DNA from: a virus
Lineage: Duplodnaviria > Heunggongvirae > Uroviricota > Caudoviricetes
DNA: 64,000 nucleotides
Virus record (IMG/VR): IMGVR_UViG_3300048091_000424
Direction: 5' to 3' (one strand)
The position numbers and the translations under genes were made by a program. Shown here in pieces: positions 17,984-35,760 of the stretch. Under the pieces are notes generated by a model. That model ran no database searches. It saw only the letters and a list, made by a program, of their open reading frames with translations, and was not told where the DNA came from. Within the stretch, counting starts at the first letter, position 1, and each line of letters begins with the position of its first letter.

Positions 17984-18143
17984 ATCCTTTGAACTTGGGG
18001 TTTTCCACGTGCACAAGGATGAGCAGTGGATCACCTTCGAGGTCATTCAGGAGGATCTGAAGGGTCGCTGAGATACCGATGTGTATTATCTTGATTCCTG
18101 TATACAGCTAAACACAGAATAATATGAAATTCATATGAAGTTA

Positions 18144-18169
18144 ATAGGATAATAATATTATTATCCTAT
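18144..18169. promoter_or_regulatory. Perfect 26-bp palindrome ATAGGATAATAATATTATTATCCTAT (operator-like)
   Basis: Self-complementary by direct reading; a half-site copy ATAGGATTAAAAAATATTAT lies at about 18253..18272 next to TTGACC-N17-TACCAT. Confidence 0.6.
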
Positions 18170-18343
18170 GTATATCGAGTCATGAGTTACTAATTATCTT
18201 CAAGCTGATACTAGTGCAGTCATGGCTCTCGATGTAAAAATGTAAGTTTTTACATAGGATTAAAAAATATTATTTGATGTATTGACCTGCAAAAATCTCA
18301 TCATTACCATTTTATGAAGCTGAAGCTCATATAGGTAATCTTT

Positions 18344-20767
18344 ATGCAAGACTCTCATACGATAAAAATAGAAGCCGCTAAGAAGTCTATCGCCTCAGGA
18401 ATTTTCAACCTGAGCCACCTCGAAGACTTTCGGAGTGAATTTGATAACCTGAGTTGGAAGAAGCTCACTGCCTTCGGCGGTGAGAATATGAATGCCCTTT
18501 CCTCTTCTGACCAGGTTTTTATCAAGGATATTCTGGCCAAAGCCCTTGGGATTGATATTCAGGATTTGACACCTGACAGCTTGTTCAGCCCGCATAGGTC
18601 GTTACAGATTTTGCAGTCCATCAGAGTCGGCCAACCCGTACACGAGTTAATGTGGGAGCTATCAGTAGAGGCCAAGAGATACATCGATCATTTGATACAT
18701 GCTCATGGTGAGGAAAAACCAGTTTTTAAATTCCTGGTCGGAAACCCTGGTTCAGGGAAGACGACCTTTAGAAATCTGCTGCAATCTAAACTAGATCCGA
18801 GTTCTCCAATCATCCATAACACATTTGGCGCACAAACGACTGGGAACACTATTCACCTTGCGTGTGCATTCCTGTTCGATAAGGTAATGATTGATTCAGC
18901 GGCGAAAAAACTAAAGGAAACGAAGCTTCGTGATGCGCGGGCCTACGGGAATATAAAGAAATACGCAATGTCCCACAATTACTATCAGGTGCTGTCTCCT
19001 TTATTTGGCTACGCTGAATCAGATAAAGATGGATCGCTGGCCGAATTTGTTAATGAATATCACAACGCCGTGAACTGTTGGATTAAGAAAGACACAGTTG
19101 GAGAACTTAAATCACTTCAAAGACATTATGGTGAACCCTGCGAGGTAATGCCTAGACCAAAAGAGTCGAATTCAATAAACTTTACTGCACAGATAATGAG
19201 TTTCTATAGCAAGATCGGACTTTATCCGGTTTGGTTAATGGACGAGTTCGAGGCTCACGAATCTCTTTACCGCGCTTATAGAATTAAAGTTTTGGACTAT
19301 TTCCGTGGGTTCTTTGACATTTTATCTGACCCGAGTTCTAAAGGCTTCTGCCTGATTTTCTCCACTGAAGCTGGCATGCACATCATTGATAGCTATCCAG
19401 CTTTAAGTGACAGACTCTCTTCTGGTAAGTATTTTTCGCTCACTCAAGCCATCTGGAGGCTGTCGGCACTAGATAAATGGAATAATGAGTATGCAATCAA
19501 GGTCATAAAGGAGTTGTACCACGCATCAGCTCAAATTGACGATATTTCTGAGGCTGTAGATAGAGCCATAAGCGAACTTGGTGGTGAACTTGACCTTGTA
19601 TTGAACAGAGAGTTCAACAAGGAAGTCGCTAGAAATCGTTTGACCCCAACTGTGACTGGCCTACTTGATCCACTATCTGAACCAGACTCGACAATAAAAA
19701 CAGACATCAAGAAAATCGCCGACAAAATTAAGTCGATTGAAGCCGCTGCAACTCAAGTGACTCGTGCTTGTTATGAACCAGAAATGGAAAACATTAAATC
19801 ACCAACTAGTGACCAGCAACACGCTGGTAACCTAGTCTTAGCTAAGGAAAATTACGACCCTACAGCAGCTGTTGTATTGATGGAGTATGCTGCCGGCAAG
19901 GATCGTAACCGTGATCCGTTCGAAGACGATCCATTCGGTGATGATCAGTTAGTAGAATCTTCAGAAGATGATGACTTCGACAGTTTTGATGGGTTCGAAC
20001 TGCCAAACCTGTACGCAAGTGATTATCGAGGTGAAGCTGATTTTATTGAATACCTAATTAGCTTCGAACATAACATCACCAATATTACAGTCGACAACTT
20101 GAGACCGCAGCAAATCAAGGAAAGTTCAATATTCAACTTCTTTGCGCGTAACAAGCACAAACACTCAGCCAAGTGGCCGGCACAACTGCAATTTAATAAA
20201 AAACCTCTAGAGTTTTCTGGCGAGCTAAATAGTAGTGATTTAAAATTCATTATCAGCGATTTCGAAAAATCCAGGTCACCCTCAAGCCTGGCTAAGAAAT
20301 ACGCAAGGTTTCGTGATTTGGGTGGCCGTTACGAAAACCTTCCATTGCAAATTCAGACTGCGATAGAAGATAAACTACCAGAAATCAACAAGCAATTTAA
20401 CTTCAACCTTAATCTTATTTTATCAGCTGTGGCGAGCGACCACCTCCTACCAACGGTTAAGATAACAGACCTGAAAAGGATACAGTCGGATGGAGACAAC
20501 ATAATCTCTATCCAAGGTCAGTCAGTCACACAACTCGTTCGGTGGAATGTGTTTGAGACGCTGTCTCTTACCAGATCACTTGTTTATGCCTACGCGTTCA
20601 ACTCAGGATATTTCCCACCTGATGCAGAGGTGGATGAGTATGTCCTTGAATGGCACGAAAAATTGGGGATGACGAAAATTACGCCAGATCGAAATGGGGT
20701 TTTCTTCTACTCGAAAGATGGCCTATGGGATAAGGAACTCCAGAATATCCGTAATACGTGGGAATGA
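18344..20767 (+). CDS. Large P-loop NTPase (807 aa) in an AT-rich island
   Basis: Walker A FLVGNPGSGKTTF, Walker B-like VWLMDEFE; acidic linker DPFEDDPFGDDQLVESSEDDDFDSFDGFE; composition visibly AT-richer than the flanks. Confidence 0.8.
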   Translation: MQDSHTIKIEAAKKSIASGIFNLSHLEDFRSEFDNLSWKKLTAFGGENMNALSSSDQVFIKDILAKALGIDIQDLTPDSLFSPHRSLQILQSIRVGQPVHELMWELSVEAKRYIDHLIHAHGEEKPVFKFLVGNPGSGKTTFRNLLQSKLDPSSPIIHNTFGAQTTGNTIHLACAFLFDKVMIDSAAKKLKETKLRDARAYGNIKKYAMSHNYYQVLSPLFGYAESDKDGSLAEFVNEYHNAVNCWIKKDTVGELKSLQRHYGEPCEVMPRPKESNSINFTAQIMSFYSKIGLYPVWLMDEFEAHESLYRAYRIKVLDYFRGFFDILSDPSSKGFCLIFSTEAGMHIIDSYPALSDRLSSGKYFSLTQAIWRLSALDKWNNEYAIKVIKELYHASAQIDDISEAVDRAISELGGELDLVLNREFNKEVARNRLTPTVTGLLDPLSEPDSTIKTDIKKIADKIKSIEAAATQVTRACYEPEMENIKSPTSDQQHAGNLVLAKENYDPTAAVVLMEYAAGKDRNRDPFEDDPFGDDQLVESSEDDDFDSFDGFELPNLYASDYRGEADFIEYLISFEHNITNITVDNLRPQQIKESSIFNFFARNKHKHSAKWPAQLQFNKKPLEFSGELNSSDLKFIISDFEKSRSPSSLAKKYARFRDLGGRYENLPLQIQTAIEDKLPEINKQFNFNLNLILSAVASDHLLPTVKITDLKRIQSDGDNIISIQGQSVTQLVRWNVFETLSLTRSLVYAYAFNSGYFPPDAEVDEYVLEWHEKLGMTKITPDRNGVFFYSKDGLWDKELQNIRNTWE

Positions 20768-33125: not shown

Positions 33126-33154
33126 TTGACACCTTTTTTGGTGGCCAGTAGACT
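33126..33154 (+). promoter_or_regulatory. Sigma70-like promoter TTGACA-N17-TAGACT for tRNA cluster 1
   Basis: Hexamers and spacing read directly; 18 nt upstream of tRNA-Asn. Confidence 0.6.
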
Positions 33155-33171
33155 TGATCTTGCAAGGCCAT

Positions 33172-33247
33172 TCCGTGATAGCTCAGTCGGTAGAGCATCG
33201 GACTGTTAATCCGAGTGTCCCTGGTTCGAGTCCAGGTCACGGAGCCA
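33172..33247 (+). tRNA. tRNA-Asn(GTT)
   Basis: Hand-folded cloverleaf: acceptor TCCGTGA/TCACGGA, anticodon arm TCGGA-CTGTTAA-TCCGA, TTCGAGT T-loop, encoded CCA. Confidence 0.9.
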
Positions 33248-33259
33248 GCCTTACGCACT

Positions 33260-33346
33260 GCCCGAATGGCGAAACTGGTAGACGCATGGGACTTAAAATC
33301 CTCTGCTCGAAAGGGCGTCCCGGTTCGACTCCGGGTTCGGGCACCA
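33260..33346 (+). tRNA. tRNA-Leu(TAA), class II
   Basis: Acceptor GCCCGAA/TTCGGGC, loop CTTAAAA, long variable arm, encoded CCA. Confidence 0.85.
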
Positions 33347-33356
33347 AGAATTCAAA

Positions 33357-33440
33357 GCCGAAGTGGTGGAATTGGTAGACGCGGCTGATTCAAAATCAGT
33401 TGCCTACGGCGTGCGGGTTCGAGTCCCGCCTTCGGCACCA
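33357..33440 (+). tRNA. tRNA-Leu(CAA), class II
   Basis: Acceptor GCCGAAG/CTTCGGC, loop TTCAAAA, long variable arm, encoded CCA. Confidence 0.85.
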
Positions 33441-33448
33441 AACAAGAA

Positions 33449-33476
33449 AGGCCCAGCATATGTCTGGGCCTTTTTC
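33449..33476 (+). terminator. Rho-independent terminator after tRNA cluster 1
   Basis: AGGCCCAG-catatgt-CTGGGCCT followed by TTTTT. Confidence 0.85.
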
Positions 33477-33504
33477 ATTTTACTGCGCCCTGGATGTCGT
33501 CATC

Positions 33505-33717
33505 ATGAAACGCCTGTTTAGTCTGTTGTCCGAGCTTACGCGCCCTGCCCCACAACCAAACCTGGAAGGTCGCATCGAACCTACCGTGCCACGGCACATA
33601 GCAGCCTCACCCTTCGAAATGGCCTCAGATGAGCTGGCCAGAGATGGCGCCCGTCGCTTCAGCAATATCGATCAATTACGCGACAGAGTGAAGGGAACGC
33701 TTAGTCCCAATAATTAA
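33505..33717 (+). CDS. Possible small protein (70 aa)
   Basis: In-frame ATG within track ORF 33400..33717, downstream of the tRNA/terminator; no clear RBS. Confidence 0.25.
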   Translation: MKRLFSLLSELTRPAPQPNLEGRIEPTVPRHIAASPFEMASDELARDGARRFSNIDQLRDRVKGTLSPNN

Positions 33718-33741
33718 TTTCAAATATTTTTAAAATTGCTG

Positions 33742-33771
33742 TTGACAGTGTTTCAGGATTAGTTCTATCTT
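33742..33771 (+). promoter_or_regulatory. Sigma70-like promoter TTGACA-N18-TATCTT upstream of micro-ORFs and tRNA cluster 2
   Basis: Hexamers read directly. Confidence 0.5.
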
Positions 33772-33803
33772 AGCTACATCACTAGTTCAACCGAGTTTTT
33801 GAC

Positions 33804-33896
33804 ATGACCACTTTCACTCAACGCGATGATGCACGGCAGCAGGACGAACGTCCTGATATCTGCTCGCGTGATGAACGCTCTGTCAAAACTTTCTAG
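33804..33896 (+). CDS. Leader-peptide-like micro-ORF 1 (30 aa, 12 of 30 residues D/E/R)
   Basis: My translation: MTTFTQRDDARQQDERPDICSRDERSVKTF; internal hairpin CAGGAC-GAAC-GTCCTG at 33840..33855. Confidence 0.35.
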   Translation: MTTFTQRDDARQQDERPDICSRDERSVKTF

Positions 33897-33908
33897 CATC
33901 TCAGATTT

Positions 33909-33970
33909 GAGGGCTAGACGCCCTCTTCTGCTAAAACAGCCGGGGGCCCAAACCTCCGGCTTTTTGTTTT
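33909..33970 (+). terminator. Hairpin (GAGGGC-tagac-GCCCTC) plus intrinsic terminator (AGCCGGGGG-cccaaa-CCTCCGGCT-TTTTTGTTTT)
   Basis: Inverted repeats and U-tract read directly; terminator stem 33938..33961. Confidence 0.7.
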
Positions 33971-33983
33971 AAGGATTTCTATC

Positions 33984-34061
33984 ATGGCTACTTACACTAA
34001 CTTCGCTGACCGGACTGATCGTGACGAACGTCGCGATGAGCGCGAGTGCCTGACTGTCTAG
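33984..34061 (+). CDS. Leader-peptide-like micro-ORF 2 (25 aa, 12 of 25 residues D/E/R)
   Basis: My translation: MATYTNFADRTDRDERRDERECLTV; AAGGA RBS 10 nt upstream; internal hairpin 34018..34037 centred on GACGAACGTC. Confidence 0.4.
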   Translation: MATYTNFADRTDRDERRDERECLTV

Positions 34062-34072
34062 TGCCGTGATAC

Positions 34073-34128
34073 GGGGCTAGAAGCCCCCAGACCGACGAAC
34101 CGGGGGCCATGGCTCCCGGTTTTTTTTG
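34073..34128 (+). terminator. Hairpin (GGGGC-tagaa-GCCCC) plus intrinsic terminator (ACCGGGGG-ccatgg-CTCCCGGT-TTTTTTT)
   Basis: Same two-hairpin layout as unit 1, with compensatory base changes; ends 12 nt before the first tRNA of cluster 2. Confidence 0.7.
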
Positions 34129-34139
34129 AGTGTTATTTT

Positions 34140-34215
34140 GTCCCTCTCGTCTAATGGCTCAGGATATCTGGTTCTCAACCAGGTGATTGGGGTTCGAGTC
34201 CCCAGAGGGAAACCA
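34140..34215 (+). tRNA. tRNA-Glu(CTC)
   Basis: Glu-type body GTCCCTC-TC-GTCT...; anticodon arm TCTGG-TTCTCAA-CCAGG; G1/A72 mismatch; encoded CCA. Confidence 0.75.
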
Positions 34216-34292
34216 ATTAGTGGTCATTGCCAGGTTAGAGGCGATGCCAGCAAGGAATAAAGCGCTCATTAAGGTGAGTGTCAAGTTTACAA

Positions 34293-34368
34293 GGCCCGTT
34301 AGCCAAGTTGGAAAGGTACGTGACTGTCTATCACGCATGCAGGGGTTCGAGCCCCCTACGGGTCGCCA
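34293..34368 (+). tRNA. tRNA with anticodon GTC (Asp by anticodon), non-canonical loop CUGUCUA (U37), Gln-like D-arm
   Basis: Acceptor GGCCCGT/ACGGGTC, D-arm GCC-AAGTTGGAAA-GGC, anticodon arm CGTGA-CTGTCTA-TCACG, encoded CCA. Confidence 0.65.
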
Positions 34369-34413
34369 CTTAGTTACACTTTTCGAAACTGAAAAGTGTG
34401 TTTTAAAAGTTAC

Positions 34414-34489
34414 GCTCCATTCGTCTAGCGGCCTAGGACGGAGGGTCTTCGCCCCTCTAACACCGGTTCGAATCCGGTATGGAGAACCA
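34414..34489 (+). tRNA. tRNA-Glu(TTC) with C33 (loop UCUUCGC)
   Basis: GCTCCAT-TC-GTCT-AGCGGCCTA-GGAC; arm GAGGG-TCTTCGC-CCCTC; G1/A72 mismatch; encoded CCA. Confidence 0.7.
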
Positions 34490-34529
34490 GTTATAGCTAC
34501 ACGTTTTATAAAGGTTTATAAGTTACAAA

Positions 34530-34604
34530 GGCCCGTTAGCCAAGTTGGAAAGGCATATGACTGTCTATCATACATCAGGGGTTCGAGCCCCCTACGGGTC
34601 GCCA
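34530..34604 (+). tRNA. Second copy of the GTC tRNA with loop CUGUCUA
   Basis: Anticodon stem TATGA/TCATA versus CGTGA/TCACG in copy 1, i.e. compensatory changes that preserve pairing. Confidence 0.65.
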
Positions 34605-34652
34605 TTTAAGTTGCACTCTGATGCATTTCAAAGTGTTGGTTTTAATAGTTTT

Positions 34653-34728
34653 GTTCCATTCGTCTAGTGGCCTAGGACAGAGGGTCTTCACCCCTCAAAC
34701 GCCGGTTCGAGTCCGGTATGGAACTCCA
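34653..34728 (+). tRNA. tRNA-Glu(TTC) with C33 (loop UCUUCAC)
   Basis: Acceptor GTTCCAT/ATGGAAC fully paired; arm GAGGG-TCTTCAC-CCCTC; encoded CCA. Confidence 0.7.
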
Positions 34729-34812
34729 ATTTTGTTCGTTGTGTGGAGTAATTTCTGTGTCGGCAATCGAAACATAGACACAATTAAAGCTGTCACTTTG
34801 GACACAAAACAC

Positions 34813-34890
34813 GGTTTGTTAGCTCAGCTGGATATGAGCGCCGGCTTGTCACGCCGGAGGTCGCGGGTTCGAGCCCCGTACAAACCGCCA
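34813..34890 (+). tRNA. tRNA-Asp(GTC), canonical
   Basis: Acceptor GGTTTGT/ACAAACC; arm CCGGC-TTGTCAC-GCCGG; GGTCGCGGGTTCGAGCCCCGT as in bacterial tRNA-Asp; encoded CCA. Confidence 0.9.
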
Positions 34891-34896
34891 CTTACC

Positions 34897-34973
34897 GCTT
34901 CTGTAGCTCAACTGGATAGAGCAGCGCCCTACGAAGGCGAAGGTTAGAGGTTCGAGCCCTCTCAGAAGCACCA
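34897..34973 (+). tRNA. tRNA-Arg(ACG)
   Basis: Acceptor GCTTCTG/CAGAAGC; loop CTACGAA; encoded CCA. Confidence 0.9.
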
Positions 34974-35004
34974 TTTCAAACGCCTGGCTCACCCCAGACG
35001 ATCT

Positions 35005-35083
35005 ACCCCAGTCGCCAAACTGGATTAAGGCACCGGTCTTCGAAACCGGTCATGTGCAAGTTCGAATCTTGCCTGGGGTACCA
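35005..35083 (+). tRNA. tRNA-Arg(TCG), Gln-like D-arm
   Basis: Acceptor ACCCCAG/CTGGGGT; arm CCGGT-CTTCGAA-ACCGG; T-arm GCAAG-TTCGAAT-CTTGC; encoded CCA. Confidence 0.75.
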
Positions 35084-35178
35084 CCTTCTCGTCGCCTGTC
35101 CAGAAGCCACAATTGATTCCTTCGGTCAGCGTTGAAAATTAACTGGACAGGTGACTGCCAACTGGGTTTTTGGCAGCA

Positions 35179-35760
35179 TCAATGCTCCCACCACTTCGAC
35201 TTCGGTATGGCCGGATTCATCAGTCGGATTCGGTTTACCATCCCACCCGTCACATGCGAGTCCAGGAAGGTTAGAGGGTATTCCTTTCCCTTCAGCCACA
35301 GGGTTAGATTATACGTTGGGTTCCGGTAACCACTCCTCCCCGTCTGAGCTGTCTCGATCAACTCTGCGGGAACAATGGCGATACGAGCCGAAAAACGCTC
35401 GTAATACACGACAGCTCCGAGATCAAAGCACAAAAGAAGGTTTTTATCCCTGCCACGCCGTTCGGGGTCGCCGCTTAGCAGGTCACCCAGCACGAAATCA
35501 GCTCTTTTGCTGTGCAAATAAAGCCATTCGCTGACGGCGTAGATCCCCACCAGAATAATGGCCAGGGATAGCTCTGAAGCCACGGCGGTCAGCAGCCCGA
35601 CGACGCCCACCGCCCAGCGCCAGCGAAGTGTTACGAGACGCATCTGCTGCTTAAAATCAGCAAAGTACGCATCCGGAAGATCGTAGGTCACCACGCTCCT
35701 CGCGCCGGCGCCCTGATCCAAGGCTTTCGCCAACACACTGCTCAGCGATGTATCTGACAT
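35179..35760 (-). CDS. Hypothetical membrane protein (193 aa)
   Basis: Two adjacent hydrophobic helices; last gene of the minus-strand SPFH operon. Confidence 0.55.
   Translation of the reverse strand: MSDTSLSSVLAKALDQGAGARSVVTYDLPDAYFADFKQQMRLVTLRWRWAVGVVGLLTAVASELSLAIILVGIYAVSEWLYLHSKRADFVLGDLLSGDPERRGRDKNLLLCFDLGAVVYYERFSARIAIVPAELIETAQTGRSGYRNPTYNLTLWLKGKEYPLTFLDSHVTGGMVNRIRLMNPAIPKSKWWEH

Follow-up and report, generated by a model that had tools for sequence, protein, structure and literature searches.

The window analysed here is a stretch of 64,000 nucleotides (nt) of viral DNA (Caudoviricetes; IMG/VR record IMGVR_UViG_3300048091_000424) that shares about 99% identity with a 1.06-Mb plasmid of Pseudomonas serbica IT-P366. 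Between positions 33,742 and 35,083 of its plus strand, a single promoter (33742) is followed by two paralogous leader units, each made up of a micro-open reading frame (ORF) and an intrinsic terminator, and these in turn by a run of tRNA genes. We refer to the whole as the leader-tRNA module. The promoter is of the sigma-70 type (TTGACA-N18-TATCTT, 33742..33771, with a score of 10/12) and stands ahead of the entire leader-tRNA unit. Immediately 5' of its -35 hexamer an A/T-rich block, AAATATTTTTAAAA (33722..33735), can be read from the sequence, which resembles the UP element of stable-RNA promoters. A promoter scan of the plus strand from 33154 to 35531 returned no promoter-like site besides the one at 33742.

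Leader ORF 1 (MTTFTQRDDARQQDERPDICSRDERSVKTF, 33804..33896) has 30 codons, 12 of which specify aspartate, glutamate or arginine (D, E or R); the last of these is codon 25, after which a tail SVKTF leads to a UAG stop codon. Leader ORF 2 (MATYTNFADRTDRDERRDERECLTV, 33984..34061) contains 12 D/E/R codons among 25, the last at codon 21, followed by the tail CLTV and again UAG, and the sequence AAGGA is located 8 nt upstream of it, at 33971-33975. Every Arg codon in the two ORFs belongs to the CGN group. The terminator of unit 1 consists of a 5' arm (33938..33947), a 3' arm (33953-33961) and a U tract reaching 33970, with a 9-bp stem that includes 7 GC pairs and the tail TTTTGTTTTA. That of unit 2 (34097..34127) has an 11-bp stem (5' arm 34097-34107, 3' arm 34112-34122) and a U8 tract to 34127. 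The two units align with each other from the start codon through the terminator, which identifies them as paralogous. Promoter, both ORFs, the CGN-only Arg codons, the paralogy of the units and the terminators had all been put forward in an earlier, sequence-only reading of this DNA, and all of them proved to be present, with the hairpins and U tracts of the terminators at 33938-33961 and 34097-34122.

Twelve nt past the second U tract begins the first of eight tRNA genes (34140..35083, plus strand), in the order Glu-CTC, Asp-GTC, Glu-TTC, Asp-GTC, Glu-TTC, Asp-GTC, Arg-ACG and Arg-TCG. ARAGORN and Rfam concur on all eight, so that the run contains Glu, Asp and Arg tRNAs only, as had been claimed before. 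The sequence-only reading had also raised the possibility of a separate tRNA promoter; no promoter-like site was found between terminators and tRNAs, either in the window or in the relatives scanned.

The leader-tRNA module was found in eight Pseudomonas megaplasmid lineages, with 14 leader units altogether: the window, pPL1 (P. silesiensis), two metagenome contigs (L049 and L041), one Logan contig, the FeN3W plasmid, pBASL58 and pMPPla107. A blastn comparison of the leader with plasmids matched pPL1 only. The Logan contig, which is short and was assembled from a public sequencing run, was reached through a 70-amino-acid ORF that neighbours the module; the metagenome contigs were reached through a structural DNA pattern, and the FeN3W plasmid, pBASL58 and pMPPla107 through a search seeded with the tRNA cluster of L041. 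The structural pattern gave about 25 chance matches per collection, which were single matches with no tRNAs nearby and were discarded, and the sole match in a search of a phage collection was to tRNA-Asn. Units occur in tandem in the window, pPL1, L004, L049, L041 and pMPPla107, and singly in FeN3W and pBASL58. The neighbours on the upstream side vary by lineage, and the promoter-leader-tRNA module stays intact. The TTGAC of the -35 element is invariant across the eight lineages, and A/T-rich blocks upstream of it align in 8/8. The number and order of the tRNA genes behind such leaders vary, yet 65 of 65 are specific for Asp, Glu or Arg. The gap between terminator and first tRNA, as read from the sequences, is about 6-18 nt in L041, FeN3W and pBASL58; pMPPla107 is exceptional with about 100 nt.

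Several features indicate that the leader ORFs carry a coding signal. In the pooled leader peptides of the 14 units, D, E and R account for 169 of 368 residues in frame (46%; R 73, D 61, E 35), as opposed to 5% and 18% in the two other frames of the same DNA and 18% in the long ORFs of the window, while Lys occurs once in 368 residues against an expected 5%. This frame-specific D/E/R excess, together with the near-absence of Lys, points to a bias for exactly three amino acids, as opposed to a general preference for charged residues. In every one of the 14 units the D/E/R-rich frame is open, and ORFs of the other frames are not conserved. Insertions and deletions within the ORFs measure 24, 9 or 3 nt versus 1-2 nt in the non-coding parts: ORF 1 orthologues retain start, frame and stop even though pPL1 carries an in-frame duplication of 24 nt, and orthologues of ORF 2 show in-frame indels of 9 and 3 nt. 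Purines resembling a Shine-Dalgarno sequence precede the leader start codons. Peptide length ranges from 17 to 38 amino acids, and in 12 of the 14 units four to five codons other than D/E/R separate the last D/E/R codon from the stop. The sequence-only reading had left it to a comparison of relatives whether the frame and the D/E/R bias are conserved or the hairpins alone; with 14 ORFs from eight lineages and their in-frame indels, the frame and the bias are conserved as well.

When orthologues were compared, the D/E/R core was retained or D and E were exchanged for each other, while N- and C-terminal residues drifted and non-synonymous changes were at least as numerous as synonymous ones outside the core. 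A core that is kept in a peptide that otherwise drifts is what would be expected for a leader whose codons are meaningful and whose peptide is unimportant. AGA codons, which among the Arg codons are confined to the two leaders of L041 (2/12 versus 0/61, Fisher p = 0.025), coincide with tRNA-Arg(TCT), which is carried by the cluster of L041 and no other; this offers a small hint of matching at the level of codons.

The same data bear on the idea that each unit is an independent gene for a small protein or a small RNA with a terminator of its own, so that the tRNAs would be made from constitutive leak and nothing would be sensed. A good intrinsic terminator does end each unit, and some features recur among the peptides: M-x-T-F/Y at the N terminus, and a Cys that precedes the stop by four to five residues. 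However, a functional peptide would not be expected to accumulate at least as many non-synonymous as synonymous changes outside the D/E/R core, and no protein family was matched: a search of six leader peptides against Pfam and NCBIfam at E <= 1 returned 0 families. Moreover, in the window, L041, FeN3W and pBASL58 the tRNAs follow the terminator after 6-18 nt and no promoter intervenes (the gap is about 100 nt in pMPPla107), and, as described below, the stop codon is embedded in a helix that covaries and is in competition with an anti-antiterminator, for which a plain gene followed by a terminator has no need. We consider this explanation quite improbable.

A further possibility is that the nascent peptide itself is sensed, the charged chain destabilising or arresting the ribosome in response to Mg2+ or some other condition. 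Intrinsic ribosome destabilisation has a precedent in mgtL, the leader peptides are highly charged, and a C-terminal C-x-x-x-stop recurs. On the other hand, D/E residues come in alternation with Arg instead of in acidic runs, the class of codon persists through changes in the sequence and length of the peptide, and the restriction of the downstream tRNAs to Asp, Glu and Arg would be left unexplained. Sensing of this kind is, in our view, very improbable.

The leader RNA is strongly structured. The folding energy of 33778-34135 was -140 kcal/mol (z = -6.6), and none of 100 shuffled sequences was equally stable. A motif that combines the post-stop hairpin with the arm of the terminator has two occurrences in the window, versus an expectation of 0. 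The post-stop hairpins with UAGAC and UAGAA loops that the sequence-only reading had described are part of the minimum-free-energy fold. An antiterminator had not been part of that reading; it was located here by folding transcripts cut before the 3' arm of the terminator.

Each unit comprises five segments that can adopt two mutually exclusive folds. In unit 1, segment 1 (UCUAGC.UCUCA, 33892..33903), which includes the stop codon, is the 5' arm of a helix X, whose 3' arm is segment 2 (UGAGG GCUAGA, 33908..33918); the first was defined by folding and alignment, the second by folding and covariation. Within segment 2, positions 33909-33914 double as the 5' arm of the post-stop hairpin B, and 33915-33918 form its UAGA loop. 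The stop-codon region UCUAGC thus pairs with GCUAGA, that is, with the end of the 5' arm and the loop of hairpin B, and an inner stem completes helix X. Segment 3 (GCCCUC, 33920..33925) pairs either with segment 2, giving hairpin B, the anti-antiterminator, or with segment 4 (GGGGGC, 33942-33947) in the 5' arm of the terminator, giving the antiterminator AT. In unit 2, segment 1 is UCUAGU.CCGU (34057..34067, again including the stop codon and again defined by folding and alignment), segment 2 is ACGG.GCUAGA (34071..34081, overlapping the 5' arm and loop of hairpin B at 34073-34082), segment 3 is GCCCCC (34083..34088), which contributes the 3' arm to hairpin B or, alternatively, the 5' arm to the antiterminator, and segment 4 is GGGGGC (34102-34107), within the 5' arm of the terminator. 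The leader can therefore form X together with AT, or hairpin B together with the terminator T.

When the isolated switch region was truncated, the minimum-energy fold was X+AT in 14 of 14 units, and when it was folded at full length, the fold contained the terminator in 14 of 14. The exclusive terminator and antiterminator structures that the sequence-only reading had suggested looking for are thus present in every unit. The direct-path barrier between X+AT and the terminator fold was estimated at 8-19 kcal/mol, a value that is an upper bound only and that is compatible, as far as such modelling goes, with kinetic trapping over the time that termination takes. The distance from the stop codon to segment 3 is 24-27 nt in 12 of the 14 units, and the terminators of the relatives have hairpins of -14 to -22 kcal/mol followed by U6-U8. 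As an aside on method, a simple terminator scan missed hairpins that are perfect or nearly so and are followed by U6, in L071, L072 and unit 1 of L041, all of which were found by folding; negatives of that scan are unreliable alone.

Both folds are supported by covariation. In a structural alignment of 13 units, X+AT was paired in 89% of cases with nine pairs changed on both sides, and its covariation score was 0.377 (shuffles 0.176, slid partners no more than 0.09); B+T was paired in 92% with a score of 0.385 (shuffles 0.184). Terminator pairs were kept at 100% across the 13 units, and AT pairs were retained by way of CG, UG and UA variants. The inner part of X occurs as at least four distinct stem sequences, and its outer part as UCUAG/CUAGA, CUUAG/CUAAG, UUUAG/CUAAA and GCUAG/CUAGC. 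In an unedited MAFFT alignment, pairing of the outer X held in all 78 cells (78/78), and two of its pairs covaried. One position covaries over four segments (A/G in segment 2 with U/C in segment 3, U/C in segment 3 with G/A in segment 4, and segment 4 with C/U in segment 5) and thereby supports both folds. With automatic alignments, RNAalifold recovered B+T but not X+AT.

The loop of hairpin B looks conserved in the window because it is the pairing partner of the stop-codon region. This is relevant to a reading in which the leader would bind uncharged tRNA through codon-like loops in the manner of a T-box. GAA and GAC triplets do occur in hairpin loops of the window. Nevertheless, the loop of hairpin B (UAGAC, UAGAA, UAAGC, UAGC, UAAAC or UAAAU) varies with its stop-codon partner and not as a specifier codon would, no conserved UGGN bulge is seen, neither a T-box nor any other family of Rfam was matched by the leader, and a conserved, translated ORF would be superfluous. 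With loops that covary with the stop-codon region and no match to the T-box family RF00230, the T-box-like reading of the loop triplets was rejected, and we give tRNA binding by the leader next to no credence.

The position of a ribosome on the leader was modelled in truncated transcripts by masking, codon by codon, the stretch that it would cover, which approximates a kinetic process by thermodynamics. With the A site on D/E/R codons, segment 3 paired downstream (AT), and with the A site on the last three to five codons or the stop it paired upstream (B). The expected switch appeared in about 9-11 of the 14 units and was stable to footprints of 9, 12 and 15 nt. It was clear in win_u2, sil_u1, sil_u2, L004_u2, L049_u2, FeN3W and pMPPla107_u1, and partial in L041_u1, L041_u2, L004_u1 and L049_u1. 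Hairpin B begins about 13-15 nt downstream of the stop codon's first base, which by what is generally known of ribosome footprints is just outside a terminating ribosome.

Such a switch could also be of a more general kind, a real translation-coupled terminator that senses overall translation capacity or the coupling of transcription to translation, with a D/E/R bias that is incidental or structural. The switch depends solely on the coverage of segment 1, and read-through is predicted for an untranslated leader. Runs of GAY and CGN codons are also partly self-complementary, and this yields hairpins inside the ORFs. These hairpins, which the sequence-only reading had placed at the D-E-R codons, are present in the minimum-free-energy fold of the window (33840-33855 and about 34016-34037), but their position is not conserved among relatives. 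ORF regions gave z-scores of -2.4 to +1.0 against shuffles, and the hairpin was rejected as a conserved element. Structure inside the ORFs is neither conserved nor significant. The bias is specific to one frame, excludes Lys, survives D/E swaps and in-frame duplications, and corresponds exactly to the three amino acids for which all 65 tRNAs of the eight lineages are specific. Furthermore, the element is missing from other tRNA clusters of these plasmids. We therefore regard a general coupling device as unlikely.

The comparative and folding evidence supports the proposal of the sequence-only reading that a tRNA operon is controlled by leader-peptide attenuation, and we think it likely that the two units are tandem ribosome-mediated attenuators that exert negative feedback on the supply of tRNA. 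According to this model, the transcript from the strong promoter at 33742 would have to pass two intrinsic terminators before the eight tRNA genes are reached. When D/E/R codons are decoded fast, the ribosome would reach the end of the ORF and cover segment 1, hairpin B would form just outside the ribosome and then the terminator, and transcription would stop. When charged Asp, Glu or Arg tRNA is scarce, the ribosome would be delayed and segment 1 left free, X and AT would form first, and the polymerase would enter the tRNA genes. The new tRNAs would then speed up translation of the leader and shut the operon down again. Because the products of the operon decode the codon track, the feedback would act on Asp/Glu/Arg decoding capacity, and two units in series would sharpen the response, with discrimination being multiplied. 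We infer the translation of the leader ORFs, the response of read-through to tRNA supply and the physiological purpose.

Some observations weigh against attenuation by D/E/R decoding. ORF 1 has a weak Shine-Dalgarno sequence (GAG). Masking produced no switch in three units: in window unit 1 the antiterminator persisted, in pBASL58 hairpin B always formed with the long upstream RNA included, and unit 2 of pMPPla107 did not respond either. For full-length unit 1 at equilibrium, the probability of the terminator was about 0.98 with the ribosome masked at any codon, which means that the switch must be kinetic, as in classical attenuators. The masking model also predicts that an untranslated leader is read through. 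On the comparative side, the inner part of X and AT were aligned manually to match the structure, RNAalifold returned hairpin B only and no X+AT for truncated sequences that had been aligned automatically, and the statistics overstate independence, since the 14 units derive from about six independent sequence types. Finally, the host's own tRNAs decode the same codons, and extra tRNA synthesis during amino-acid starvation would be futile.

Two units deviate in their ORFs. Unit 1 of L049 has an in-frame TAA 9 nt before the conserved UAG (L049:2130-2122, minus strand). Unit 2 of pMPPla107 has an early in-frame UGA (L072:2728-2730) and a different helix X; with the gap of about 100 nt to the first tRNA, this unit may be degenerating or diverging.

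In the attenuators of amino-acid operons (trp, his, leu, thr, pheA, ilv), a leader ORF precedes a terminator and an antiterminator, the position of the ribosome decides between the two, and slow decoding leads to read-through. The units described here have in common with them an ORF rich in regulatory codons between promoter and genes, a terminator and an overlapping antiterminator, and the alternating hairpins of the his leader (A:B, C:D, E:F versus B:C, D:E) resemble the chain of segments found here. Selection of the fold by ribosome position, a further trait of such attenuators, is supported in part. They differ in that amino-acid attenuators control biosynthetic enzymes whereas the present units precede tRNA genes alone, and in that three amino acids would be sensed at once through interleaved codons by two attenuators in tandem. 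In addition, segment 1 contains the stop codon and is preceded by the regulatory codons, while in leaders of the trp type the codons are within segment 1, and an untranslated leader is predicted to be read through instead of being super-attenuated.

Another related system is the pheST attenuator of E. coli with its pheM leader, which is chromosomal, responds to a single amino acid and controls phenylalanyl-tRNA synthetase. In both cases a component of decoding would be under leader-peptide attenuation with feedback on the supply of charged tRNA, but the target of pheST is a protein, an aminoacyl-tRNA synthetase, and the target here a tRNA gene cluster on a megaplasmid. T-box leaders, which occur mainly in Gram-positive bacteria, have no ORF and bind tRNA directly, by means of a specifier loop together with the conserved T-box sequence. 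They are likewise terminator/antiterminator switches that sense the state of a specific tRNA, and they govern genes for aminoacylation, yet none of their hallmarks (specifier loop, T-box sequence, ORF-less leader) is found in the present units. Searches of Rfam at gathering and permissive thresholds returned tRNAs and chance matches only and no leader family (Thr, His, Leu, Trp or others); a weak Thr_leader match (E = 3.4) is on the other strand, at 33442-33513, where the upstream terminator is located.

Upstream of the module the window carries a separate tRNA operon (33126-33475) with Asn-GTT, Leu-TAA and Leu-CAA, its own promoter directly in front (TTGACA-17-TAGACT at 33126), a bidirectional terminator (33445-33475) and no leader ORF. 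A Leu-Leu-Met cluster in pBASL58 (L002:4999-5318) has the same build, with a promoter directly in front and without a leader. Between the Asn/Leu/Leu cluster and the leader promoter of the window sits the conserved 70-amino-acid ORF (33505-33717), which a search of 5.8 billion proteins linked to only two clusters of homologues. It belongs to no Pfam family; its sole match is to an arginyltransferase model, weak and below threshold (E = 0.025). Elsewhere in the window, GC content falls to 0.417 at 18001-20000, compared with about 0.52-0.55 in the rest.

The tRNA genes themselves show some peculiarities. Two of the three tRNA-Asp(GTC) genes of the window (34293-34368 and 34530-34604) carry CUGUCUA as their anticodon loop, in which position 37, almost always a purine in tRNAs, is a U, and the third (34813-34890) has the usual loop UUGUCAC. 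The CUGUCUA loop is also present in tRNA-Asp copies of FeN3W and pMPPla107 (L070, L072), and the copies of pPL1 and L049 have G37. The third tRNA-Asp of pPL1 (L001:4728-4785) is an internally deleted remnant, and its cluster retains seven intact tRNAs. A 21-nt pattern taken from the plasmid tRNA-Glu(CTC) matched tRNA-Glu genes in ten viral contigs of IMG/VR (L031-L040), seven of them 59-488 kb in size, and one (L035) with five consecutive tRNA-Glu genes; these matches hint, at the level of sequence, that the plasmid tRNAs may be related to phage tRNAs. The jumbo-phage tRNA clusters matched by this pattern are not Asp/Glu/Arg clusters, and the region upstream of that in L035, the sole one read among the viral contigs, contains no comparable leader.

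The pMPPla107/pBASL58 family of plasmids has been described as bearing 44-54 tRNA loci per plasmid, and it has been suggested that these loci offset tRNA depletion or a mismatch in codon usage (PMC6482414). It is the same replicon family in which leader units are shown here to stand ahead of the Asp/Glu/Arg clusters; the terms 'leader' and 'attenuat' were not found in a search of PMC6482414. ARAGORN detected 5 Glu, 3 Asp and 3 Arg tRNAs in pMPPla107 (L072, NZ_CP031226.1, about 908.3-909.4 kb), contrary to that paper, in which the plasmid is described as lacking Glu and Asp tRNAs; there, text and table interchange the tRNA counts of pMPPla107 and pBASL58. Full-text literature searches revealed no earlier account of attenuation of tRNA genes, and since the older subscription literature is thinly covered by them, the absence of a precedent is probable and not certain. 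What would be new, judging from the sequence evidence, is the tRNA genes as the target, as the known attenuators control genes for biosynthesis, transport or synthetases.

In bacteria, tRNA genes are generally considered to be regulated chiefly at their promoters, by growth rate and the stringent response, and we know of no transcriptional mechanism that provides codon-specific feedback on individual tRNA species. If our interpretation is correct, the module would represent the first leader-peptide attenuation of tRNA genes and the first closed loop from codon-specific decoding speed to the transcription of tRNA genes, as well as a compact natural sensor of specific tRNA supply that might be of use in synthetic biology. 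It would also bear on how megaplasmids and large phages express tRNA genes without constant cost. According to published work, pMPPla107 has been transferred experimentally to other Pseudomonas hosts. On balance, we favour the view that the pMPPla107 family of megaplasmids is equipped with a tRNA supply module that is portable and regulates itself, in which micro-ORFs would gauge the speed of Asp/Glu/Arg decoding and a switch embedding the stop codon would admit the polymerase only when decoding is slow. Attenuation would then have been adapted to the decoders themselves, allowing a mobile element to tune the tRNA pool of its host on demand.

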